Positions 1,662 to 61,550 of a stretch of DNA of 64,000 bases are shown piece after piece. Under the pieces are notes generated by a model, which had not been told where the DNA came from, did not search any database, and saw only the letters and a program-made list of their open reading frames with translations. The position numbers were made by a program, and so were the translations under genes. Numbering within the stretch: position 1 is the stretch's first letter; each line of letters opens with the position of its first letter. The stretch lies in NCBI GenBank assembly GCA_964653685.1, contig CAZZHA010000001.1:5794-69793 (forward strand). The letters are read 5' to 3'. This stretch comes from an uncultured Gammaproteobacteria bacterium. Its GTDB lineage: Bacteria > Patescibacteriota > Microgenomatia > PFEM01 > JAHIFH01.

Positions 1662-1843
1662 TTTAATAAGAAGATATTAAACTTCACCTCCCAGCTTTTA
1701 TAATGCCGTATATTATACATCGAAACTGAAAAATAGCTGAGAGAATTAAAAATTTTAACTCTTGACTTTTTGGGAAAAAGATTTTACTGTTAATTTAATA
1801 TTCAATCTGCCCCCTAAAAGTTTAAGCCGATAAACTAAATAAG

Positions 1844-4673: not shown

Positions 4674-5971
4674 ATCTTTTTTAATCTCTTAAACGTCTTT
4701 TCTCTTCCTAAAACCTCTATCGTTTCAAAGAGAGGCGGAGTAGCGGTTTTACCAGTAAGGGCAATTCTGGTTGCCATAAAATATTTGCCAGTATGCCAAT
4801 TATTCTTCTCTGCCAAATCTCTGAATAATTTTTCTAATCTCTTTGCCTCCCAAACCCTATTTTTTTCTAACTCCATGATTGATTTTTCGAACTGTTCTTT
4901 GAGTAATTTTTCTCCCTGACTTTTTTTAATGAGTAATTTTTTATCAACCTTTGGTTCTCTAATAAAAAAGTCAACTAAATCAGGATAATCAGAAAGTTTA
5001 ATCAATCTGTCTTTAATTAAAGGAATGGTTTGTTTAATTAAACTATCTGCCATTCCTTTAGGTATGTATGGTTTAATTAATTGAAGTAGTTCTTTATCTG
5101 TCTTTTCCCTAAGATAAACACCATTTAACCAATCTAATTTTCTTAAATCAAAAACAGGAGCCGAAGTTGAAATCCTTTTAAAAGAAAAATATTTAATAAA
5201 TTCATCTAAACTAAAAACCGTTTTGTCTTGGGGGTGTGACCAACCCATTAAACCAAAAAAGTTAACCATCGCTTCGGGTAAATAACCTTGTTCCTGATAC
5301 CAAGAAAGAGCGACCAGGTTTTTTCTTTTTGAAATTTTTGATTGGTCAGGATTTCTTAAAAGAGGCAAATGAGCAAATTCTGGTACCTTAGCCCCTAAGG
5401 CTTGATAAAGCATTATTTGCCGGGGAGTGTTAGAAATGTGGTCTTCACCTCGAATCACCTGGGAAATTTTCATTAACCAGTCATCGATGACCACAGCAAA
5501 ATTATAAACAGGATAGCCATTTGACCTTAAGATAACAAAATCTTCAATCTGTTGATTATCAAACTCTATTCTTCCACGAATAAGATCTTGCCAAGAAGTT
5601 TTTCCTTTTAAAACCTTAAATCGAATTGCCCCTTCATCTTGGTAAGCAAGTTTTTTTTCTAGCAATTCTTGAGCATATTTCTGATAAAGACTTATTCTTT
5701 CTGATTGACGATAAGGCCCAAACTTGCCCCTAACGTCCGGACCCTCATCGTAATTTAAACCTAGCCAGTGCAAGCCATCAAAAATTGCTTTTTCCGCTTT
5801 AGGTACATGGCGTTTTATGTCTGTATCTTCGATTCGAAGAATGAATTTGCCTTTGTTTTTTTTGGCAAAAGCATAATTAAAAAGAGAAATGTAGGCGGTA
5901 CCAACATGGGCAAAGCCGGTTGGCGAAGGCGAAATTCTGACTCGGATGCTCATTTGCCTTGATTTTAGCAT
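4670..5971 (-). CDS. gltX: glutamate--tRNA ligase (short form; true start may be M7 at 5953)
   Basis: Class I aaRS: RISPSPTGFAHVGTA (HIGH-type) and KISKRK (KMSKS-type) motifs; 433 aa. Confidence 0.7.
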   Translation of the reverse strand: MLKSRQMSIRVRISPSPTGFAHVGTAYISLFNYAFAKKNKGKFILRIEDTDIKRHVPKAEKAIFDGLHWLGLNYDEGPDVRGKFGPYRQSERISLYQKYAQELLEKKLAYQDEGAIRFKVLKGKTSWQDLIRGRIEFDNQQIEDFVILRSNGYPVYNFAVVIDDWLMKISQVIRGEDHISNTPRQIMLYQALGAKVPEFAHLPLLRNPDQSKISKRKNLVALSWYQEQGYLPEAMVNFFGLMGWSHPQDKTVFSLDEFIKYFSFKRISTSAPVFDLRKLDWLNGVYLREKTDKELLQLIKPYIPKGMADSLIKQTIPLIKDRLIKLSDYPDLVDFFIREPKVDKKLLIKKSQGEKLLKEQFEKSIMELEKNRVWEAKRLEKLFRDLAEKNNWHTGKYFMATRIALTGKTATPPLFETIEVLGREKTFKRLKKI

Positions 5972-6004
5972 AGCGTCACTTTATACTCAAAATAGATTTT
6001 CCAG

Positions 6005-9423: not shown

Positions 9424-11067
9424 TTATTCTGGAATTTTAATGTCTTTGATTTTTAATTCCAACCGCTGAAGGCCATTCCATTGATTGAGAAAAAGATTAT
9501 AGGCAAGGTCAACTGGTTGTTTGGTTGAAAGCTGAGGTAATAATTCTCCTTGACCAAAAGCAATTACCTCAAAACCATTAACTCTAAATTTAAGATGTTG
9601 ATTATCAGCCCCAACTTTTTTAAGGTTAGCAATTCTTACTTGCCGACTGGAAAAGACCGGTTGAGGATTATTCATCCCAAAAGGGGCAAATTTATTAACT
9701 TCTTGATAAAGAGCTAAGTTTAAATCAATTAACTCAACCTCTATCTCAATTTCTATTCTCGGTCCTAATTTTTTCTTGCCTAAATCTTTTTCCGCCTTTT
9801 TTATTAATCTCTGTTTAGCTTCTTCTAATTTCTCCTGACTGACATCAAAACCAGCCGCCAAACGATGACCGCCATGATCACCAATAATATCTTTCAATTC
9901 CCGAATGGCTTCAATAATATTAAACTCTTCAATTGACCGGCCCGAACCTACCCACCGATCTTTTCTAGGCGCTAAAATAATGGCTGGTCGATAAAATTCG
10001 TCTTTTAATTTACTTGCCACCAAACCAACAACACCATGCTCATAAGACTGATGATAAATAAAAATTAAAGAACTCTCACCATCTTCTTTTAACCAAAGTT
10101 CTCGAGCGTGAAGAGTAGTTTGTTTCATTAATTCCTGACGCTCACGGTTTTTCTGATCAATTTTCTGGGCTAAACTGATAGCTCGATTTTCATCATTAGT
10201 ACAAATTAAGCGAAGAGCTTCCATCGGATCATCCATCCTGCCGCTGGCATTGATTCTTGGACCAATAATAAAACCGACTTCATAGGTATCAATCTTTTTT
10301 TTATCAAGACCAGCGAATTGATAAAGAGCTAACAAACCAGCTCGCTTAGTTTTGTTAACCTGACTCAATCCGAATTTAACAATCGAGCGGTTAGGACCAA
10401 TCAAGGGGACCATATCGGTTATTGTTCCAATGGTAACTAAATCTAAACCAAGGGGTTTGGCTTTAGATTTAATTTTTTCAACCAGCCACTTAGCCAAAAA
10501 CCAGGCTACACCACAACCAGCTAATTGGGTGGTGTGGATAATGGCTTTTGCCTTAGGTTTCTTTTTTCCAGGCTGATGGTGATCAGTAATAATCACATCA
10601 ATCCCTGTTTTTTTTGCCCGAGTTACTTGACGATAAGCAACGATCCCTTGGTCAACCGTAATAATCAATTTCACTCCCTCTTTAGCCATTTGATTAATGA
10701 TACTAGCTTTCAGACCATAGCCTTCTTCTCTGCGGGGGATAAAGGGCAGGACATCTAAACCTAATTTATTGAGGGTTTCCCACATGATGGCGGTCGCGCA
10801 AACACCATCGGTATCATAATCACCGTAAACAATCACTTTCTCTTTTTTCTTAATTGCCTGCCTAATTCTCTTAAGCGCTTTATTTAATTGAACCAAGGAA
10901 ATACCAACATCTTGAGGTGTCAATTGGTAGGGATCTTTGGGATTAAGAAATTCTTTTTGTTGTTTTTTTGTTTTCAAATTACGGTTCTTAAAAAGAGCTT
11001 TAACTATTTCTTCTCTTCTTTCTTGGAGTTTGGTAGATTTGATTCTTGCTAAAACTTTCCACCTCAT
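9424..11067 (-). CDS. recJ: single-stranded-DNA-specific exonuclease RecJ
   Basis: DHH motifs (GDYDTDGV, ITDHH) and DHHA1-like C-terminal region. Confidence 0.8.
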   Translation of the reverse strand: MRWKVLARIKSTKLQERREEIVKALFKNRNLKTKKQQKEFLNPKDPYQLTPQDVGISLVQLNKALKRIRQAIKKKEKVIVYGDYDTDGVCATAIMWETLNKLGLDVLPFIPRREEGYGLKASIINQMAKEGVKLIITVDQGIVAYRQVTRAKKTGIDVIITDHHQPGKKKPKAKAIIHTTQLAGCGVAWFLAKWLVEKIKSKAKPLGLDLVTIGTITDMVPLIGPNRSIVKFGLSQVNKTKRAGLLALYQFAGLDKKKIDTYEVGFIIGPRINASGRMDDPMEALRLICTNDENRAISLAQKIDQKNRERQELMKQTTLHARELWLKEDGESSLIFIYHQSYEHGVVGLVASKLKDEFYRPAIILAPRKDRWVGSGRSIEEFNIIEAIRELKDIIGDHGGHRLAAGFDVSQEKLEEAKQRLIKKAEKDLGKKKLGPRIEIEIEVELIDLNLALYQEVNKFAPFGMNNPQPVFSSRQVRIANLKKVGADNQHLKFRVNGFEVIAFGQGELLPQLSTKQPVDLAYNLFLNQWNGLQRLELKIKDIKIPE

Positions 11068-11090
11068 TGTGCTATCATAATAACATAGAA

Positions 11091-12500
11091 ATGAGCCAAA
11101 AACTCCCAGAAAAATTTAGTAAAAAAATTCCTAAAGAAATTTTAAATGTCTTTAAAAAATTTACAGACCAAGGTCATGAAATCTATTTGGTCGGGGCTGG
11201 CGTGAGAAGCCTACTTCAAAATAAAGTCCCAATTGACTGTGATTTCACAACCAAGGCTACCCCTAAAATCATTCAGGCTTTATTCGATGACTCTTTTTAC
11301 GATAATGCTTTTGGCACGGTTGGAATTCCTTTTAAAACAAAAAGAGGTGAAGAAGTTTATGAAATTACCACTTACCGAAAAGAATGGGGTTATTCTGATA
11401 AAAGAAGACCAGATGAAGTCAAGTGGGGTAAAAAATTAGAAGAAGACTTAGAAAGAAGAGATTTTACTTTTAATGCCATTGTCATTGGACCAATCTTAAA
11501 AAATGGCCAGTGGGATCAAAAATCTTTAGAGATGATTGACCTTTTTGACGGTCAAAAAGACTTTAAAAATAAAATTGTCAAGGCCGTAGGTAACCCGAAT
11601 AAAAGGTTTTCTGAAGACGCTCTAAGAATGATGAGGGCGATCCGTTTTGCTGCTCAACAAGGTTTTACCATTGAGAAAAAGACTTTTCAAGCGATCAAGA
11701 AAAACAATCAGCTAATCGATCAAATCAGTCAGGAAAGAGTTAGAGATGAACTGTTTAAGATTCTTACCAGCAATTATGCGGCTGATGGTTATTTAATCCT
11801 AAGAAACTCTGGCTTAGCCGAAAGAATTCTGCCTGAAGTCGAAAAAATGTTTGGGGTTAAACAAAAAAGCCCGGGTCGGCATCATATTGATGATGTTGGT
11901 ACCCATGCTATCAAATCTCTTAAGGCCAGTAAATCCAGAGACCCAGTTGTTAACCTGGCAATTCTTATTCATGATGTTGGCAAGCCATTAGTAGCTGACA
12001 AAGATAAAAAAGGAACTATTACTTTCTACAATCATGAAATGGTTGGCACTCATTTAGCCCGAAACATTGCCCGAAGACTAAGATTTTCTAAAAAGAATGA
12101 AAATAGGTTGATTACCCTAGTCCGTTGGCACCAATTTAGTGTTGATGAAAGACAAACCGATAAAGCGATCAGGCGTTTTATCAGGAATGTTGGCAAGGAA
12201 AATTTAACCGATATGCTTGAATTAAGACGAGCAGATCGAGTTGGCGGTGGCGCCAGAGAAACCTCTTGGCGCTTTGAAAGATTTAAGAAAAAATTAGTTG
12301 TGGTCCAAAAACAACCTTTCTCCATTACTGATCTCAAGGTCAATGGTCAAGACGTTATGAAAATTCTGGGAATTCGTCCTGGACCAGTTGTGGGCAGGAT
12401 TTTAAACCAATTATTTGAAGAGGTTGAAGAGGATAAAAGTAAAAACAAGCGAACTTATCTTCTCAAAAGAATCAAACAGCTTGGAAAAAAACTAGTTTGA
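11091..12500 (+). CDS. cca: CCA-adding tRNA nucleotidyltransferase with HD domain (start trimmed to MSQKL; ORF-track start 11046 overlaps recJ)
   Basis: PolyA-pol head domain GAGVRSLL...DCDFTT; HD domain motif (HDVGK). Confidence 0.7.
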   Translation: MSQKLPEKFSKKIPKEILNVFKKFTDQGHEIYLVGAGVRSLLQNKVPIDCDFTTKATPKIIQALFDDSFYDNAFGTVGIPFKTKRGEEVYEITTYRKEWGYSDKRRPDEVKWGKKLEEDLERRDFTFNAIVIGPILKNGQWDQKSLEMIDLFDGQKDFKNKIVKAVGNPNKRFSEDALRMMRAIRFAAQQGFTIEKKTFQAIKKNNQLIDQISQERVRDELFKILTSNYAADGYLILRNSGLAERILPEVEKMFGVKQKSPGRHHIDDVGTHAIKSLKASKSRDPVVNLAILIHDVGKPLVADKDKKGTITFYNHEMVGTHLARNIARRLRFSKKNENRLITLVRWHQFSVDERQTDKAIRRFIRNVGKENLTDMLELRRADRVGGGARETSWRFERFKKKLVVVQKQPFSITDLKVNGQDVMKILGIRPGPVVGRILNQLFEEVEEDKSKNKRTYLLKRIKQLGKKLV

Positions 12501-12511
12501 ACAACTCCAAA

Positions 12512-12826
12512 ATGCTCCCAACGAAAAAATTTATTAAAAAAACTGAAGATTTTATCTGTGATGTTTGTGGCTTTAAAATAAAAGGCACTGGTTACACTGA
12601 TCATTGTCCTAATTGTCTTTTCAGTAAACATGTTGATTTTAATCCTGGAGACAGGCAAGCAACTTGCCATGGTTTAATGAAACCAATTGGTATGACTCAA
12701 AAAAAAGGTAAACAGCAAATTCTCTATCGCTGTCAAAAGTGTGGTTATCAAAGGTTCAATAAGGTCTCACTAGAAGATAATCAAGAAAAGCTTCTTGAAA
12801 TTTCCTCGTTCCCTATTAAAGAATAA
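12512..12826 (+). CDS. RNHCP-domain zinc-ribbon protein
   Basis: CDVCG..., HCPNC, CQKCG motifs plus GDR, matching the RNHCP domain pattern. ORF-track start is a TTG; first ATG at 12512. Confidence 0.45.
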   Translation: MLPTKKFIKKTEDFICDVCGFKIKGTGYTDHCPNCLFSKHVDFNPGDRQATCHGLMKPIGMTQKKGKQQILYRCQKCGYQRFNKVSLEDNQEKLLEISSFPIKE

Positions 12827-12828
12827 AT

Positions 12829-13701
12829 TCACTTTCTTTTGGCAAATTTTTCCCAAATAATTAATAGTGGTGCGGCCGTAAAAGTGGAAGAATAAGTTCC
12901 AGAAATGGTGCCAATCAATAGAGCCGCCACAAACCACCTGATCGTCGTCCCGCCTAGCAAGAGCAAAGCAATTAACATAAAAATAATGGTCATCGAGTTA
13001 TTGACTGATCGACTCAGAGTTTCGGTCACTGCCTTATTAATTATTTCTCTAAAAGGCGTTCTTGGTAATAATTTTTGTGATTCTCTAATTCGATCATAAA
13101 CAACAATCGTATCGTGAACCGAAAAAGAAAGAATGGTTAACATGGCCGTCACAAATAAGGTGTCTATCTCAACTCCCAAGAAATGGCCTAATAAAGAAAA
13201 ACTGCCAAGGAGAATAAAAGTATCGTGGAACATCGCTAAAATGGCACAGACGCCAAATTTAAGATCCTTAAACCGCCAAGCCACATAAGTAAGAATAAAA
13301 CCAGCCGCTAAAATGATGGCCCAAATTGTTTTCCTAACTAATTCTTTGCCTAAAGTCGGTCCAACCGTTTCAAAGCGAATCTCTTCTGATTCTTGATTAA
13401 ATTTTTCATTGATAGCTGATTGAATTTCCTCGGCTTGGTTTTTTTCAATTGGCTGGAGACGGATTAAAATTTGATTTTCACCTGATTTTTGAACCGCCGA
13501 AACCTCAAAGTTCCTCTCAATCAGTAATTGATCAACCTCTTTAGGGTTTAATTCTTGCTGGGTCTTCAACTCCAATAAACTACCACCCGTAAAGTCAATC
13601 GCTGGTTTTAAGCCAAACAAAAACAGAGAAACAATCCCTGGGACTAAAATCAAGGCCGATAAGGCAAAGTAGAGCCATTTATATTTCATCCAATCAATCA
13701 T
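12829..13701 (-). CDS. secF: protein translocase subunit SecF
   Basis: SecF signature AIDFTGGS; 6 TM; 4-nt overlap with secD. Confidence 0.85.
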   Translation of the reverse strand: MIDWMKYKWLYFALSALILVPGIVSLFLFGLKPAIDFTGGSLLELKTQQELNPKEVDQLLIERNFEVSAVQKSGENQILIRLQPIEKNQAEEIQSAINEKFNQESEEIRFETVGPTLGKELVRKTIWAIILAAGFILTYVAWRFKDLKFGVCAILAMFHDTFILLGSFSLLGHFLGVEIDTLFVTAMLTILSFSVHDTIVVYDRIRESQKLLPRTPFREIINKAVTETLSRSVNNSMTIIFMLIALLLLGGTTIRWFVAALLIGTISGTYSSTFTAAPLLIIWEKFAKRK

Positions 13702-15044
13702 TGTGTCTCCTTCCCGGAAAAGGTCCTTAAAATTGTTCGGGTAACCACCACTCCGGTAAACAAACTTAATAAAACTCCCAGACCTAGAGTTAAAGCAAAA
13801 CCACGCACCATGCCCGAGGTATTAAGGAAAGACCAACTAAAAGGATTAAAAAGAATAAAGCAGGTGATTAAGGTAGCCACATTGGCATCCCGAATCGAAT
13901 CCCAAGCCCGGCCAAAACCTAATTCCATGGCCAATGATTTTGATTTACCGGTTCTAATCTCCTCTTTCATTCTCTCAAAAACCAAGATATTGGCATCAAC
14001 CGCCATCCCCACAGAAAGAATGAAACCCGCAATTCCTGGTAAAGTCAAAGTCACGGGAATTAATTTGTAAAACATTAAGGTAATCAAACCATAAATAATC
14101 AAACCAACATTAGCTAAGATGCCTAAGCGGCCATAATAGGCCGCCATAAACAAAATTACCATCAACAAGCCAATTAAGCCTGCCTGAACGCTCTTTTTGA
14201 CTGACTCGGCGCCCAAAGTTGCCCCGACATTTCTCTGCTCAACAATTTTAATGGGGATCGGTAAAGCCCCGGCGTTAAGTTGAGTTGCCAGTAATTTTGC
14301 CTCTTCAGTGGTAAATTCACCACTAATCACCGCTTTACCAGTGGTAATTTTTTCTCTGACCAAGGGAATGGTTACCGGGACCTCATCAAGAAAAATGGCC
14401 ACGGGTTTCCCCACATTCCTACTGGTTATCTCTCCGAACTTTCTTGCTCCCTCATCGCTAAACTCCAAACCAACCACGGGTTCACCCGTATTAGGATCAA
14501 ATTGAACTTGACTTTTATTCAAATCTGCTCCGGTTAAATCTGTTTCTTGATAATCATCAAGGGTAGCCGCGGCCGTGGCTTCAGGACTTAAATCCCGAAA
14601 ATCAAGTTGAGCTGTCTGGCCGATTAAATCAACGGCTTGGTTAACATCAGTCACCCCAGGTAGTTCAACAATTAAACGATAGTTATCCCCTAATTTTGAA
14701 GTCTGAACTAAAGCTTCAGCCAAGCCAAACAAATTAATTCTTCTTTCAATATTCTCTCTAGCCGCCGCCAAAGCGGTCTCTCGATTATCTTCGCCAATAT
14801 CACTCATCTCCGCTTGAAAAACTAAATGGCTACCACCAGCTAAATCAATTCCTTGTTTAATTTCTAAATCACGGAAAAATTTAAATTTACCAATCTGAAA
14901 ATTTAGGATTGGTCTGGTAAGTTCTTGATCTATTTTAAAACCATTAAAATTAAACTTTAAGGGAATTCTCGTGGGTAAATCAATAAAAATCGCTATCACG
15001 GTCAGCAGAATAATCAACCAGAGCAGATAACGGCGATCTTTCAT
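13698..15044 (-). CDS. secD: protein translocase subunit SecD
   Basis: SecD motifs LGLDLAGGSHLVFQA; C-terminal 6 TM. Confidence 0.85.
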   Translation of the reverse strand: MKDRRYLLWLIILLTVIAIFIDLPTRIPLKFNFNGFKIDQELTRPILNFQIGKFKFFRDLEIKQGIDLAGGSHLVFQAEMSDIGEDNRETALAAARENIERRINLFGLAEALVQTSKLGDNYRLIVELPGVTDVNQAVDLIGQTAQLDFRDLSPEATAAATLDDYQETDLTGADLNKSQVQFDPNTGEPVVGLEFSDEGARKFGEITSRNVGKPVAIFLDEVPVTIPLVREKITTGKAVISGEFTTEEAKLLATQLNAGALPIPIKIVEQRNVGATLGAESVKKSVQAGLIGLLMVILFMAAYYGRLGILANVGLIIYGLITLMFYKLIPVTLTLPGIAGFILSVGMAVDANILVFERMKEEIRTGKSKSLAMELGFGRAWDSIRDANVATLITCFILFNPFSWSFLNTSGMVRGFALTLGLGVLLSLFTGVVVTRTILRTFSGKETQ

Positions 15045-15244
15045 TTCTTAACTCTTCTCCTCTTAGTCAAAGAAACTAAAGGTAGTTGGCGAGTGCCACT
15101 AAAAGAATAAGTAACCTTGCCGGTTTCTGGTTCAACTTTAACCTGAACCGTCTGGCCAGCTTTAACCCCCACATTTCTAACAAAATCTGAGGGAATGGTC
15201 ACTGCCAAACTGTTACCGGTTTTAATAATTTTTTGTTTTCCCAC
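15041..15244 (-). CDS. AbrB/MazE (SpoVT-AbrB swapped-hairpin) domain protein
   Basis: KTGNSLAVTIPSDF motif typical of the AbrB/MazE fold; start/stop overlaps couple it to both neighbours. Confidence 0.5.
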   Translation of the reverse strand: MGKQKIIKTGNSLAVTIPSDFVRNVGVKAGQTVQVKVEPETGKVTYSFSGTRQLPLVSLTKRRRVKK

Positions 15245-15834
15245 TATTCTTCTCCGTATTTGGCCACTAAGTTTTCTTGGTCACCAATAATCATCACTCT
15301 TGAACCCAAAAGGATACTCTGTAGAAAGGGGTCTCGCCTTTTCTTGCGAAAATTAAATTCATCTTTAGTCATCACCGTGTAATTAATTTCTCTGTTTAAT
15401 TTCGCTTCTTCAACTCGAACTAATTTAACCAAAGTCTGCATATCAATTTCACCGACAATTAAGAGATCAACCCCACCTTCTTCGATAGGCAAACGACGGG
15501 CAAAACGACCGGAGAACATCACTAATTTAATTCTGCCCAACTTTGATTTATTCTTGATTATTTCTTTGCCTAAACCAGTGGTTTTGTTAACCATCGTTAG
15601 CAACTCCTCATAAAGAGGATATTCGCGGTTAAAAAAGTAATAAAGGCGGTTACCCCGAGATTCTTTCTTGGCCATACCGGCTTTTTCCATCCGGGCTAAT
15701 TCTCGCCGCACGGCATTAATCTCTTCATTAATCTTTCTCACTAATTGGCGGACGTAGAAAATCTCATCAGGCTGATAAAGAAAGGTCTGAAGAAGTTTGA
15801 CCCGGACTTTGGAAACCATTAAATCTTTAAGCAT
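15244..15834 (-). CDS. winged-HTH + minimal nucleotidyltransferase (MNT-like) fusion protein
   Basis: N-terminal wHTH-like region. C-terminal FSGRFARRLPIEEGGVDLLIVGEID matches the GS...Dh[DE]h nucleotidyltransferase motif. Confidence 0.4.
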   Translation of the reverse strand: MLKDLMVSKVRVKLLQTFLYQPDEIFYVRQLVRKINEEINAVRRELARMEKAGMAKKESRGNRLYYFFNREYPLYEELLTMVNKTTGLGKEIIKNKSKLGRIKLVMFSGRFARRLPIEEGGVDLLIVGEIDMQTLVKLVRVEEAKLNREINYTVMTKDEFNFRKKRRDPFLQSILLGSRVMIIGDQENLVAKYGEE

Positions 15835-15854
15835 GGTGCCTCCGGGCAGGTTTT

Positions 15855-17015
15855 TTAATAACTAACTTCGTTGCCAACTGGAAGAGTCTCAATCCAGATA
15901 GGACCACGATTGAATTTAATCTCTTCTCCTCGAGTATCTTTGAAAATCGTCCTTGCCTGGCGATTGGCTTTGTTCCAGGTCGCTTGGATGACCTGCCCAT
16001 CTTGAAAAACCAAGGCCTTGCCTGTACCAATGGTCGTATAGAGTAAATGCTTCAACTCATCAATCGGGCCTTTTTCAATCATAAACTGAACAACGACCAC
16101 TTTAGCGATTAACTGCTTATCATAATCCAAATCCTTATGTTCCTGACCGCCGTTAAAACGAAGATATTGATTATTCCCTTGATCATATTGCCAATTGACT
16201 CCATACTCTTGCTGACCACCCCAAAAACTAAACTCAATCTTATTAACATCGCCTTTATCCTGAGCGTCGTCTTTAAATTCCCAAGACTGCCAGTCCTTGT
16301 CCCATTGATTACCTTCATCATCTTTAGCATCAAGACCTCGATCATGAGCGATCGCATAAAGTTTGTCAGCGGTGGAATACATTGTGTGTTCGGTGGCCAC
16401 CGGTCGTCCTAGACGTTCATAATCACGCCAAAAAGTAGGAAAACCAAGAGAAAATTGATTCATGTCATTACCCTTAGCTAGCCAACCATAATCACCAATT
16501 TGGCCTAAAGCATTGGCCAGACCTGGTTTGTTAGCCCCACCAACATGAACATAAAGAGGATAGTCACCATATTCTGAAGCAAAATCCATAAAGTAAGTCC
16601 GAGCTGAACGAACTGGTCCAATGATAAAATCTTCAGCCACTGCCCCGCAATAGTAAACGGCTAAGAAGCGGGTAATCCCTCCCTCGGCTACGGCTTCGTA
16701 AACAACATCAGCTTTAGAAAGACCAGATTGAGGCCGAGAATCAGCATGATTCTCAATCATCACCGTTAAAGGTCGTCGACCTTCCCAAATTCCCTTTTCT
16801 CCTTTAGTGAATAGCTGACCATTAAGAGGACAAGCTTCTGTCTTGGGCGCGGTTAAGTCAACCCTTGATCTGGCTTCATCGACAGCCAAAGGTGAAATCA
16901 TACTAGGAGCAGGGCTGACAATAAAACGAAAGGCAGCGTAAGAAACTCCTGTTGAAGCTAAATATAAAAGAAGGCCACCAATGATTATTGTTAATTTCTT
17001 TTTATTTAAGCTCAT
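15855..17015 (-). CDS. secreted DUF3048-family protein
   Basis: Signal peptide; AEGGITRFLAVYY motif recalled from DUF3048 lipoproteins. Confidence 0.45.
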   Translation of the reverse strand: MSLNKKKLTIIIGGLLLYLASTGVSYAAFRFIVSPAPSMISPLAVDEARSRVDLTAPKTEACPLNGQLFTKGEKGIWEGRRPLTVMIENHADSRPQSGLSKADVVYEAVAEGGITRFLAVYYCGAVAEDFIIGPVRSARTYFMDFASEYGDYPLYVHVGGANKPGLANALGQIGDYGWLAKGNDMNQFSLGFPTFWRDYERLGRPVATEHTMYSTADKLYAIAHDRGLDAKDDEGNQWDKDWQSWEFKDDAQDKGDVNKIEFSFWGGQQEYGVNWQYDQGNNQYLRFNGGQEHKDLDYDKQLIAKVVVVQFMIEKGPIDELKHLLYTTIGTGKALVFQDGQVIQATWNKANRQARTIFKDTRGEEIKFNRGPIWIETLPVGNEVSY

Positions 17016-17485
17016 CTTATTCTCTTGGCTTTTTTAATTGCTTGTTTTTCCTCGGCCGATAAGTCATAACCAGCTGCCTTACTCTTTTTAACTGGCTTGG
17101 CATAAATTCTGGTAGTATCCCGACTGTGCAAACTTGAAATAACCAAGCCATTACCTCGGCCATCTAATAATGATAAACAAAAACTTTGGTCTCCGCCAGT
17201 CTCTGCAAAAGGATTATAGCGTACTAAACCAACTTTTTGAATATTATACAAGTTATTCTTTTCCAATTCTTCTGCCATTTTAACTAGTTTATCAATTTCT
17301 TTGGTTTGTTTGTCGAAATCTTTAAGTAATTTCTCTAAAACGCTCTTCAAATCTTTTTTAGTGATTCCTTTAGTCAACTTCCATAAAGGCGATAAAAACT
17401 TGTAAAAAAGAAAACTCAAGGCAATCAGCCAAACAAAAATGATACCTATTAAAACAATAAGGAGTTGATCAAAATTGAGTAACAT
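17012..17485 (-). CDS. DUF4446-like membrane-anchored protein
   Basis: N-terminal TM, coiled coil, C-terminal RYNPFAETGGDQSF...AKP region. Confidence 0.4.
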   Translation of the reverse strand: MLLNFDQLLIVLIGIIFVWLIALSFLFYKFLSPLWKLTKGITKKDLKSVLEKLLKDFDKQTKEIDKLVKMAEELEKNNLYNIQKVGLVRYNPFAETGGDQSFCLSLLDGRGNGLVISSLHSRDTTRIYAKPVKKSKAAGYDLSAEEKQAIKKAKRIR

Positions 17486-17541
17486 TCTTACCTTATCAAC
17501 TTGATTTTAAACAGGTTCAATGTTATTGTCAATCTAAGAAA

Positions 17542-17832
17542 ATGGCCAAAAAACGGAAAACCAGACAAGAAAAGATTATTCTCCAGTTAAAAAGAGAGCT
17601 AGCAAAAAAAAGTCAAGTCCCAGCTTCAAAAAACACAGAACCCGAACCTAGTCAAGAGGCAATTTCTCAACCCAAAAAAATCAAGGTTGAAAAAAAGCTT
17701 TCCCTGAAAAAGACCGATATTTCTATCCTTTCTTCTGAACCAAGCCTAATCAGGCACGACCTAGTTAAAACCCTGATTTTAAGCTTGGCTGTTATTAGCC
17801 TTGAATTCGTGTTATACTTAGCCTTAAGGTAG
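17542..17832 (+). CDS. hypothetical Lys-rich protein with C-terminal TM
   Basis: ORF only; no family recognised. Confidence 0.3.
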   Translation: MAKKRKTRQEKIILQLKRELAKKSQVPASKNTEPEPSQEAISQPKKIKVEKKLSLKKTDISILSSEPSLIRHDLVKTLILSLAVISLEFVLYLALR

Positions 17833-17901
17833 GCTTGAAAATTTCTCCTGCCCGAAAATAAAAAAATATTTAACTTAATTGAGAGGAGGTGAAAAGAATC
17901 T

Positions 17902-18042
17902 ATGGCAGACTTTTATTGTGTGAAGTGTCGCGCTAAAAGAAATGGCAAAGACGTTCAGAAAGTGACGATGAAGAACGGCAAACCAGCCCGAAAGGCAGTT
18001 TGTGAGGTATGCGGCACAACTATGTTCAGAATTGGAGGCTAA
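17902..18042 (+). CDS. DUF5679-like small zinc-ribbon protein (46 aa)
   Basis: Hand-found ORF below the track cutoff: MADFYCVKCRAKRNGKDVQKVTMKNGKPARKAVCEVCGTTMFRIGG. Strong SD GAGAGGAGGTG 8 nt upstream; two CxxC pairs. Confidence 0.6.
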   Translation: MADFYCVKCRAKRNGKDVQKVTMKNGKPARKAVCEVCGTTMFRIGG

Positions 18043-18070
18043 GCCTTCTCTCTGAAAAGTTGTAACTTTT

Positions 18071-18103
18071 AAAACCCAGCTCCTCTTGGGGTTGGGTTTT
18101 TTA
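18071..18103 (+). terminator. intrinsic terminator after the DUF5679 gene
   Basis: CCCAGC-loop-GUUGGG hairpin followed by UUUUUU. Confidence 0.5.
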
Positions 18104-18204
18104 GTTAAAAATTTTTTCTTGTTCTCTATAAACAATTCTGTTATGTTGTTTTAATAGCAGAAAATATTGAACCCGTTGGTCTTAACAATCTCAAGGGTTG
18201 TCCC

Positions 18205-18624
18205 CTAATCTTTCTGAAGTTTAGTTAATTCTTTCCTTAGTCTTGTCATTTCCTTGGCTAAATTTTTTTGGACTTGTTTAATTTCCGTTAATTGTCTATC
18301 AGCTTTCTCATTAAGTTTAATATCATGTTCTATTCTCTTTCTGTCCCGTTTTCTTTGTCTAGTTTCTTGCAAATCTCTTTTCATTTCCGCTTTATTAGCG
18401 GACATTAAAAGAAAGATGCCAATGAAAATTGCTTCCAAAGAAACACTAAAAGTTAATAGATTAACATCAAAATTAAGAATCAACCAAAGACTGAACCAAA
18501 GAGTATGAAAGATAACGGCCCACCAACTACCCAAAAACCAAGAAACAAAATCAGTAAATTTTTCCATTAAACTTTTAGTTTTTTTGGGAATTTTAGTAGT
18601 TTTAATTAAAGGTTCAACCGGCAT
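18205..18624 (-). CDS. DUF1003-like small membrane protein
   Basis: Two TM helices (SWWAVIFHTLWFSLWLIL) then charged coiled-coil tail. Confidence 0.35.
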   Translation of the reverse strand: MPVEPLIKTTKIPKKTKSLMEKFTDFVSWFLGSWWAVIFHTLWFSLWLILNFDVNLLTFSVSLEAIFIGIFLLMSANKAEMKRDLQETRQRKRDRKRIEHDIKLNEKADRQLTEIKQVQKNLAKEMTRLRKELTKLQKD

Positions 18625-27991: not shown

Positions 27992-28264
27992 TTACCTGAC
28001 CGCCTTCTTTAATGGTTTGCCTGGAGAAAATCTAGGAGCCCGATGACTTTTAACCATTTTCTTTTCACCGCTTCCAGGAACAATAACTGGCTTTTCTTTA
28101 ACCTTAGCAACTCGAAAAGTACCAAAACCAGAAAGAACGACTTTATCACCTTTTTTTAAAGCATTAGCTATTTCAGTTAAAAAAGTGTCAATTGCCTCTC
28201 GAGAAGCCCTTTTAGTTAAATGGGCCTTAGCCGCTACCAAAGTCACAATTTGTTTTTTAGTCAT
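27992..28264 (-). CDS. hup: DNA-binding protein HU
   Basis: HU/IHF fold (GFGTFRV, arm region R..PRFSPGK). Confidence 0.85.
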   Translation of the reverse strand: MTKKQIVTLVAAKAHLTKRASREAIDTFLTEIANALKKGDKVVLSGFGTFRVAKVKEKPVIVPGSGEKKMVKSHRAPRFSPGKPLKKAVR

Positions 28265-51029: not shown

Positions 51030-51590
51030 ATGCTGGTTAAAAAAATTATTCTCATTATCCTTGCTTTAGGAGCAGTTGGTACCTTAAGTTTTTTTCTTCT
51101 TAATAAAAATAGTTTGCCAGAGGTTACTCAGCAGGTTGGGATGGAAAAAGAAAATCTCGATGACCAATGGTTAACCTATACCAATGATTCTTATCAATAC
51201 GAAATTAAGTATCACCGTGACTGGCACAAGCAGGAAGAAAATGAACCACCCTACCCTCCGCCACCTGCGGGAATGAACTTCAGCCGGCGTTGGCTTGAAC
51301 CACTAGAGGTTTGTGATTTTCAGATTTCATCAAGCGATATCGTTGATAATTTTGAAGGGGAAATTGAGAGTCTCTCCCAAGACACTAATAAGCAAATGTC
51401 TCAAGCAGTAATCGCTGGCCAAAAGGCAACCAAGTTCGTTAGTTCAACCGAAAACCAATTAGTTGAGAGCTATTACCTAACTTATAAAAGAAATTCATTT
51501 AATTTGGGATTTAATATTCTCCGAGGGGAACACTTTAATACCTGTCAACAGGTCTTTAACCAAATGATTGCTTCTTTTAAGCTTTTATAG
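51030..51590 (+). CDS. hypothetical membrane-anchored secreted protein
   Basis: N-terminal TM; PPYPPPP stretch; no family recognised. Confidence 0.4.
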   Translation: MLVKKIILIILALGAVGTLSFFLLNKNSLPEVTQQVGMEKENLDDQWLTYTNDSYQYEIKYHRDWHKQEENEPPYPPPPAGMNFSRRWLEPLEVCDFQISSSDIVDNFEGEIESLSQDTNKQMSQAVIAGQKATKFVSSTENQLVESYYLTYKRNSFNLGFNILRGEHFNTCQQVFNQMIASFKLL

Positions 51591-52272
51591 CTTTTATTAA
51601 TAATCTTGTTGGCATTGAAGAATATTTCTTATAGTCTTTTTTATTCTTTTTAGCCTTTTTACCCACAGGGGTGGGTTCTTCAACACTTAACAGTTCAAAA
51701 CCAAAACTCATAATCGTGTTTATATAGTCAGAAAACTTTTTCGGGTGATATTTAATTTCTGTTCCCCAAGGTGTTTTCTCTATCTTTGCTTTATTACTAA
51801 AGTATTCTGAATGATTACTAACAAACCGAAGTGGATGAATAGTAATAAAAAATAGATATCCTCCTTTTGCTAACCATCTAGAAATACTCTCCATTGTTTT
51901 CTTAAAATCCTTTTGACTTAAATAATTAAAAGTCATATTACTTACGACAAGGTCTAAGCTTTCATTCCGTAGTTTTAAATTAGACAAGTTTGCCTGTATA
52001 AACCTTATATTGGGAAAAGAATTTCGGGCGATATTTAGCATATCAGGACTTATGTCAGTTCCGATAAGATTTTTTTCCCTCACTCCCAAATCAAGAAGTA
52101 GTTTTATTGTTCTTCCAGTTCCACACCCAGCATCAAGAACTCGCATCTTACTTTCCAATATTGGTTTTAAATGCCTTTCCATTGCTGGTTTTTCTACAAA
52201 TTTCCAACTAAATGATTTCTCTGAAAACTGAATATATTTAGCAGCTTGCACACCTGAGTATTTTACTTTCAT
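51577..52272 (-). CDS. class I SAM-dependent methyltransferase
   Basis: Motif I VLDAGCGTGRT; motif post-I DISPDML. Confidence 0.8.
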   Translation of the reverse strand: MKVKYSGVQAAKYIQFSEKSFSWKFVEKPAMERHLKPILESKMRVLDAGCGTGRTIKLLLDLGVREKNLIGTDISPDMLNIARNSFPNIRFIQANLSNLKLRNESLDLVVSNMTFNYLSQKDFKKTMESISRWLAKGGYLFFITIHPLRFVSNHSEYFSNKAKIEKTPWGTEIKYHPKKFSDYINTIMSFGFELLSVEEPTPVGKKAKKNKKDYKKYSSMPTRLLIKAIKA

Positions 52273-61489: not shown

Positions 61490-61550
61490 AAACTAAAAAA
61501 TTGCTTTTGGGCAGGTAATAAAATAAAAATAATAGAATCCTGACTTCTAT

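Follow-up and report, generated by a model that had tools for sequence, protein, structure and literature searches.

The 196-amino-acid (aa) protein encoded at 15244..15834 on the minus strand of the DNA analysed here, hereafter X196, combines a winged helix-turn-helix (wHTH) with a degenerate minimal-nucleotidyltransferase (MNT) fold and is a homologue of PDC-M05A in the PADLOC database. All coordinates refer to the 64,000-nucleotide (nt) stretch of contig CAZZHA010000001.1 (assembly GCA_964653685.1, class Microgenomatia), which is called the window below. Judged by sequence comparison, the X196 clade is a solo, catalytically eroded branch of the PDC-M05A family, because phmmer searches of the window and of 85 related loci with two PDC-M05B partners found no PDC-M05B-like open reading frame (ORF) and because the catalytic residues have been lost. 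We propose, with confidence about evenly divided for and against, that X196 is a domesticated, catalytically dead regulator of the antitoxin type, which would bind nucleic acid, be co-transcribed with secDF and probably exert feedback on its own operon.

Fold and Ancestry of X196

The sequence-only reading of this DNA had assigned the 196-aa protein an N-terminal winged helix followed by a minimal-nucleotidyltransferase fold, and both structure modelling and structure searches upheld this architecture. The assignment is considered correct because an AlphaFold2 model built from 30 homologues was confident (predicted local distance difference test score, pLDDT, 89) and agreed with structure comparisons. 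X196 consists of an ArsR/MarR-like winged helix and a C-terminal pol-beta nucleotidyltransferase-fold domain. The wHTH (residues ~1–72; 15619..15834, minus strand) contains the near-invariant recognition helix EEINAVRREL and the invariant basic residues R11, K13, R29, R33, R43, R44, K57, R60 and R63, and the nucleotidyltransferase-fold domain spans residues ~96–190 (15265..15549, minus strand). Structure searches with full-length X196 mostly returned wHTH matches; since these swamped the result, a separate model of the C-terminal domain was used for the fold test, and this model upheld the nucleotidyltransferase fold. The C-terminal domain also carries a basic patch, FRKKRRDPF, which is specific to the X196 clade, and the isoelectric point (pI) of the whole protein is 9.8.

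X196 searched alone reached no threshold in Pfam or NCBIfam. Only weak N-terminal ArsR/HTH matches were obtained, with 18.9 bits against the ArsR-type model NF033788 (cut-off 55) and Pfam HTH matches that were also below their cut-offs, and neither PF01909 nor PF18765 was matched in Pfam even at an E value of 1. X196 therefore has the winged helix in common with the ArsR/SmtB and MarR regulators, but scores far under the cut-offs of these families, and its dimerisation and sensing part is a nucleotidyltransferase-fold domain in place of alpha5 (ArsR) or a helical dimer interface (MarR). A likeness of residues 98–150 to the RNA polymerase omega subunit (RpoZ; phmmer, E = 0.02) disappeared when the family profile was used and was attributed to chance.

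Profile searches assigned no unrelated fold to the protein and placed it with PDC-M05A. The match to the PADLOC model PDLC04368 had an E value of 4.4e-39 and aligned residues 2–189 of X196 with positions 6–195 of 201. A database search with X196 gave 7428 matches, and when a profile was run against 1.8 billion cluster representatives, 5819 clusters were retrieved at E ≤ 1e-3; 2355 clusters at 50% identity fell below E = 1e-10, a number that covers the whole superfamily including the canonical relatives. This superfamily comprises two groups. In one, the recognition helix varies and the motif is canonical, FIYGS.AKG......SDIDL; the other, to which X196 belongs, has the helix [EQ]INAVRREL and a decayed motif. 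The profiles of the X196 group and the canonical wHTH-MNT group aligned over 196 columns with an hhalign probability of 100% and E = 8.5e-59. PF01909 was matched by 20/62 relatives and PF18765 by 19/62, and the profile of the canonical relatives matched solved MNT chains (8xeh, E = 2e-6).

A kinship with toxin–antitoxin systems, which had been suspected from the sequence, was confirmed by the canonical relatives. Their wHTH-MNT gene overlaps a downstream gene that matches both PDC-M05B (E = 1.8e-56 and 4.8e-17) and the HEPN family PF05168, giving the arrangement of PDC-M05A/B. PDC-M05 is a candidate defence or toxin–antitoxin module composed of a nucleotidyltransferase and a HEPN protein, and is experimentally unvalidated (PMC12988326). 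X196 resembles PDC-M05A in its wHTH plus MNT architecture, its length and the C-terminal motifs REINY and EF..R....D.F. In contrast to PDC-M05, which is a two-gene module, the X196 gene is fixed in a housekeeping operon without a PDC-M05B/HEPN gene, and the protein has lost GS and the first Asp of the active site. The sequence-only reading had also allowed for a displaced HEPN partner elsewhere in the genome; none was found by phmmer in the 64-kb window or in 85 related loci, and PADLOC and Pfam scans covering a subset of the window ORFs gave no HEPN match. A weak PDC-M05B match in one related locus (L066, E = 0.0013) was discarded as it lay antisense inside X196 itself. No publication on the solo Patescibacteria form was found.

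Decay of the Active Site

X196 had initially been credited with an intact GS(x)nDhDh motif, which did not hold on comparison with the canonical relatives. The stretch that aligns with their GS-X10-DXD (15466..15510, minus strand) reads G109-R110-X10-G121-V122-D123, as established by profile alignment, residue conservation and a motif census. In the profile–profile alignment, G109 corresponds to the Gly and R110 to the Ser of GS, while G121 takes the position of the first Asp of DXD and D123 that of the second; the X10 spacing is identical in X196 and the canonical relatives. The census comprised 124 full-length representatives of clusters at 50% identity, of which 80 were of the INAVRREL type and 44 had another helix. 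GS was lost in 78/80 INAVRREL-type representatives and kept in 2/80, and only 1/80 had both GS and DXD, whereas both were kept in 36/44 representatives with other helices. The first-Asp position in the INAVRREL clade was occupied by D, E, N, Q, A, P, K, V or G. The conserved pocket residues of the X196 clade include G109, E119 and D123.

MntA-type enzymes have the motif GS-X10-DXD. In MntA, its residues bind ATP and two Mg2+, and the variants G27S/S28T and D39E/D41E show weaker neutralisation of HepT (PMC7641770). Since the catalytic positions are replaced in X196 and MntA variants at these positions are impaired, X196 is very probably not a working MntA-like transferase. The two proteins also differ in their setting. 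In the type VII HepT/MntA system, MntA requires GS-X10-DXD to poly-AMPylate HepT (PMC7641770); it has no wHTH and is always paired with HepT. X196, in contrast, has GR-X10-GXD and no partner.

Gene Cluster and Genomic Context

Direct reading showed that X196 belongs to a tight cluster of six genes, all on the minus strand, in the order DUF4446-DUF3048-X196-AbrB-secD-secF, and that the 196-aa ORF, the 67-aa ORF, secD and the overlaps first described for them are real. The DUF4446 gene (157 aa; 17012..17485; PF14584, E = 5e-38) comes first and overlaps the frame of the DUF3048 gene (386 aa; 15855..17015; PF11258 and PF17479) by 4 nt, and a spacer of 20 nt separates the latter from X196. The X196 stop codon TAG (15246–15244) has one base in common with the GTG start of the 67-aa ORF (TAGTG), 7 nt upstream of which lies a GGAG, and the stop codon of this ORF overlaps the ATG of secD (ATGA, 15044–15041). 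The secD gene (448 aa; 13698..15044; TIGR01129, 365.7 bits against a cut-off of 244.4) overlaps by 4 nt with secF (290 aa; 12829..13701; TIGR00966, 289.1 bits against a cut-off of 160), the last gene of the cluster. By our reading of the sequences, the DUF4446 protein has a hydrophobic stretch at its N-terminus and the N-terminus of the DUF3048 protein is signal- or anchor-like. Pfam bore out the view that no HEPN, PIN or MazF toxin is encoded in the cluster, the remaining members of which are DUF3048 and DUF4446.

When one genome was scanned for each GTDB species, at least 590 X196 loci were identified, and the best 80 were used for the context counts. DUF3048 was found directly upstream of X196 in 76/76 evaluable Microgenomatia loci, and DUF4446 preceded DUF3048 in 68/80 related loci. 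In 73/76 loci, X196 was followed within 1.6 kb by a secD gene of the same orientation, the exceptions being L014, L046 and L055. In loci without the AbrB gene, X196 abuts secD, with either an overlap or a gap of 2–30 nt. The median identity of X196 (59%) was the highest in the cluster, followed by SecD (56%), SecF (52%), DUF3048 (51%) and DUF4446 (42%), and the window and every sampled locus had one copy of X196. The idea that X196, the AbrB gene and secD form a conserved trio was abandoned: the AbrB gene is missing in about half of the loci, and the constant neighbour is the upstream DUF3048 gene.

Outside Microgenomatia the neighbourhood changes, although the recognition helix [EQ]INAVRREL is common to Microgenomatia, Dojkabacteria, ABY1-like lineages and others. 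In Dojkabacteria, the X196 homologue lies between DUF3048 and a gene for a membrane protein of 404/407 aa, which is followed by a 173-aa membrane protein and miaA. The 404/407-aa protein (L084:6582-7805 and L093:5579-6793) has no Pfam family. The 407-aa form showed a weak collinear BLASTP match to SecD (E = 5e-4), with an hhalign probability of only 15%, and the protein may be a very divergent SecD-like protein; its 173-aa neighbour had no similarity to SecF. In an ABY1-like lineage (L083, L090 and L094, ~5001-6000), the X196 homologue directly precedes a TsaD-family (TsaB-like) gene encoding 141–143 aa, the two either overlapping or lying a few nt apart. In L085, L092 and L095, miaA-murT-gatD and the X196 homologue precede a gene for either an AI-2E transporter or a metallo-beta-lactamase (MBL)-fold protein. 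A second, looser association with secDF was seen in L091 (5001-9937), where the order is X196 homologue, rluA-like gene, tsaB, gene for an 86-aa Cys-rich protein, secD and secF. The X196 homologue there precedes secDF by 1.8 kb and has the same orientation, and the secD product (551 aa) has a peptidyl-prolyl isomerase (PPIase)/rotamase insertion. The X196–secDF link is thus strong within Microgenomatia, loosely recurrent once elsewhere and not universal. The linkage claimed from the sequence alone therefore stood for Microgenomatia, but X196 is not a dedicated secDF module, because the family is Patescibacteria-wide and has unrelated neighbours in other classes.

The AbrB/MazE-Type Protein and the Position of yajC

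The 67-aa protein encoded between X196 and secD (15041..15244, minus strand, GTG start) had been read as an AbrB/MazE protein, and its match to PF04014 (30.6 bits against a cut-off of 24.7; E = 3.4e-7) agrees with an AbrB/MazE/SpoVT-type fold. Its scores were below the equivalog cut-offs of TIGR02609 'doc_partner' (33 against 55.9) and NF047400 (18.9 against 50). The closest solved relatives in the PDB are 'addiction module antidote' chains (E = 0.009), and the pI is 11.2. An AbrB-type ORF, of one of two sequence types, was found between X196 and secD in 38/80 loci, and according to our reading of the coordinates its stop codon overlaps the secD start as ATGA in at least 12 loci. The second sequence type (ITKIGNSKGIIIP) occurs in six of the Woesebacteria-like loci, all but L037; typing by tblastn placed it in seven loci overall. 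The 67-aa protein itself forms a narrow orthologous group of 64–73 aa, which is restricted to Microgenomatia and to one position. PF04014 is common to this protein and to AbrB/MazE/SpoVT antitoxins and transition-state regulators, but the 67-aa gene is toxin-less and translationally coupled to secD; a toxin gene never adjoins the AbrB-type gene, and secD comes next. Because half of the lineages have no AbrB gene, it is an accessory insertion outside the conserved core.

In E. coli, yajC, secD and secF form an operon in this order, and YajC is a single-pass membrane protein of about 100 aa. This layout was the basis of the suggestion that X196 and the AbrB-type gene occupy the slot of yajC. Both arrangements have small genes directly upstream of secDF, which are probably co-transcribed with secDF in the window as well. 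However, neither X196 nor the 67-aa protein is YajC-like: no PF02699 match was found in Pfam, no hydrophobic segment was obvious on our reading of either sequence, and both proteins are basic and of a DNA-binding type, unlike YajC. The accompanying claim that yajC is missing stood only in part, as no yajC was found next to secD or in the 64-kb window by phmmer, in a weak test of limited sensitivity with E. coli and B. subtilis YajC sequences. The sole weak YajC-like ORF (27992–28264) corresponds to HU in Pfam.

A CTGCCC Element Upstream of X196

The spacer between DUF3048 and X196 contains a CTGCCC element (15844..15849, minus strand) in the context AAAACCTGCCCGGAGGCACC-ATG. CTGCCC was present in 45/80 segments of 60 nt upstream of X196, compared with 1.4% of background segments, and is 41-fold enriched; the spacer contains YCTGCCC in about 48 of 80 loci. 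The element is strand-specific, with 46 sense and 4 antisense copies within −45 to −1 of 780 gene starts. Besides the copy at X196 (15844–15849, minus strand), the window contains copies at the DUF5679 gene (17848–17853, plus strand), pyrF (1807–1812, plus strand) and the gene for a 118-aa protein (61509–61514, minus strand). YCTGCCC is located 10–55 nt upstream of these genes and always points toward the downstream gene. Two copies exactly 10 nt apart were found in the X196 spacers of L015, L046 and L077, and once upstream of the DUF5679 gene (L019).

The element may be an operator, an internal promoter element or a signal at the RNA level. Upstream of X196 homologues in other classes, CTGCCC was absent and TATAAT-type promoters were found instead. 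When the upstream regions of X196 and DUF5679 were compared, 16 loci had the element at both, 24 at X196 only, 4 at DUF5679 only and 9 at neither. The case for CTGCCC as an operator of X196 is weakened by its absence in other classes and by the lack of clean co-variation between X196 and DUF5679. In some loci, CCC can pair with the GGG of the Shine–Dalgarno (SD) sequence to form a sequestering hairpin; as an SD sequence is missing there from many of the loci, this was rejected as a general explanation.

CTGCCC is also missing upstream of X196 in the Woesebacteria-like loci L018, L037, L064, L067, L068 and L079. These have a TGTACAAT/TATAAT-like −10 box 1–25 nt before the start codon, which suggests a separate X196 promoter with a very short or absent leader.

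Possible Role of X196

We propose that the X196 family, which is Patescibacteria-wide, descended from, or is sister to, the wHTH-fused MNT antitoxins of HEPN/MNT modules (PDC-M05). In the X196 lineage, the HEPN partner is gone and the active site has decayed from GS-X10-DXD to GR-X10-GXD. X196 would bind nucleic acid, probably DNA, via its basic wHTH, and the dead nucleotidyltransferase-fold domain might serve as an oligomerisation platform, a ligand-binding platform or both. Being made along with SecDF, the protein would probably act by feedback on the envelope/secretion operon. The 67-aa AbrB-type protein could act as a lineage-specific, dispensable second DNA-binding partner, that is, an optional co-regulator, and would not be half of a live toxin–antitoxin pair.

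Several observations weigh against this proposal. The best 80 loci are a single-class sample, as all come from Microgenomatia (Shapiro-, Beckwith-, Gottesman-, Woese-, Ames- and Chisholmbacteria). The recognition helix is near-invariant despite class-specific neighbours such as tsaB, the AI-2E transporter gene and murT/gatD, which points to a target common to all classes and not to a secDF-specific operator; no inverted-repeat operator for X196 was identified. Moreover, the wider region, including the convergent gene for the CCA-adding enzyme, is syntenic across Microgenomatia, so the adjacency could partly be inherited gene order. Finally, D123 and several charged residues of the nucleotidyltransferase pocket are invariant, and given these residues X196 may retain nucleotide binding or perform an unusual chemistry.

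The main rival explanation, which we regard as possible though somewhat doubtful, makes X196 a general factor of the Patescibacteria with one conserved target, be it a global regulator, a nucleoid-associated protein or an RNA-binding protein, and takes its adjacency to secDF as inherited gene order without meaning for Sec. Such a general factor would fit the retention of [EQ]INAVRREL across Microgenomatia, Dojkabacteria, ABY1-like lineages and others, and also the neighbours that differ by class (tsaB; miaA-murT-gatD with the AI-2E transporter or MBL-fold gene; DUF3048 with the membrane protein of Dojkabacteria that has no Pfam family). The lack of secDF downstream of X196 in L014, L046 and L055 and the clade-specific C-terminal patch FRKKRRDPF are consistent with it as well. 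It accounts less readily for the tight spacing or overlap of X196 and secD, which persists at ~55% SecD identity, for the independent lineage L091, in which an X196 homologue again lies 1.8 kb upstream of secDF, and for the weak, uncertain SecD likeness of the Dojkabacteria membrane protein that follows X196 (hhalign probability 15%).

A more far-reaching model, which seems unlikely to us, would make X196 a core pseudo-enzyme regulator of the whole Patescibacteria/candidate phyla radiation (CPR), derived from a HEPN/MNT antitoxin. The wHTH would read one conserved target and the dead pocket would serve either as a nucleotide sensor or for binding nucleic acid, with the Microgenomatia form being hard-wired to the SecDF/envelope operon via CTGCCC, which also occurs at DUF5679 and pyrF.

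It is very unlikely that X196, the AbrB-type protein or both are remnants of a live toxin–antitoxin system that neutralise a HEPN, Doc or MazF toxin encoded elsewhere. Both folds are typical of antitoxins, X196 is homologous to PDC-M05A, and the AbrB-type protein has the weak TIGR02609 'doc_partner' and 'addiction module antidote' matches (the latter with E = 0.009). However, a toxin was found neither in the cluster nor in any of 85 related loci, and X196 is single-copy, fixed in its chromosomal position and conserved at a housekeeping level, unlike mobile toxin–antitoxin genes. The residues required by MntA-type antitoxins for neutralisation have been lost, and half of the lineages do without the AbrB gene. 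Least probable of all is an active nucleotidyltransferase that would transfer AMP or another nucleotide to a Sec component, as the sequence-only reading had offered, or another target, as MntA does HepT: although the fold is retained, G109, E119, D123 and other pocket residues are conserved and the gene is probably co-transcribed with secDF, the motif is degenerate (GS Ser to Arg; first metal-binding Asp to Gly), GS is lost in 78/80 clade representatives with a variable first-Asp position, X196 has no PF01909 match, and even the conservative MntA changes G27S/S28T and D39E/D41E reduce the neutralisation of HepT (PMC7641770).

The reading of X196 as a domesticated antitoxin-type regulator would have consequences beyond this locus. 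Patescibacteria genomes are very small, yet X196 is ~60% identical across the class, above SecD; it is therefore likely to be important, even though the family is annotated merely as a 'hypothetical' or 'HTH domain' protein. X196 would clearly illustrate how a component of a conflict system can be domesticated for housekeeping, and caution is warranted as PADLOC-type scans can call these core genes PDC-M05A. Should the secDF/envelope cluster prove to be under the control of X196, the protein would rank among the few candidate regulators of protein export in these uncultivated organisms.

Transcription Signals and Flanking Genes

A sigma-70-like promoter, TTGACA-17-TAAAAT (17504..17532, minus strand), lies upstream of DUF4446 and agrees with the consensus at 11/12 positions. 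It is a consensus match only, and the region has just as many promoter-like sites as expected from shuffles; it is, on the other hand, the best-scoring site and is placed in the only sizeable spacer upstream of the cluster. This site is likely the main promoter of the six genes. Terminator-like matches within the cluster were weak, and their excess (9 against 5.5 ± 2.5 in shuffles) was not significant. An Rfam scan of 12400–18300 with E values up to 1 gave no match.

On the secF side, the gene for an RNHCP-domain zinc-binding protein (12497–12826, plus strand; PF12647, E = 5e-28) converges on secF and lies downstream of the gene for the CCA-adding enzyme (11046–12500, plus strand). In most Microgenomatia loci, the latter gene is conserved downstream of secF and runs in the opposite direction. 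On the DUF4446 side, a gene for a 46-aa DUF5679 zinc-ribbon protein (17902–18042, plus strand; PF18930, E = 3e-15) is preceded by an ORF for a lysine-rich protein of 96 aa (17542–17832, plus strand), the C-terminal segment of which appears hydrophobic on our reading. The two are oriented divergently to the DUF4446 promoter region, and many related loci show synteny for the pair. Farther away in the window, residues 13–154 of a 231-aa protein (51577–52272, minus strand) matched the PADLOC model mad2 (mads_2) with E = 2.8e-23, a match that may reflect a methyltransferase-like domain instead of a defence system.

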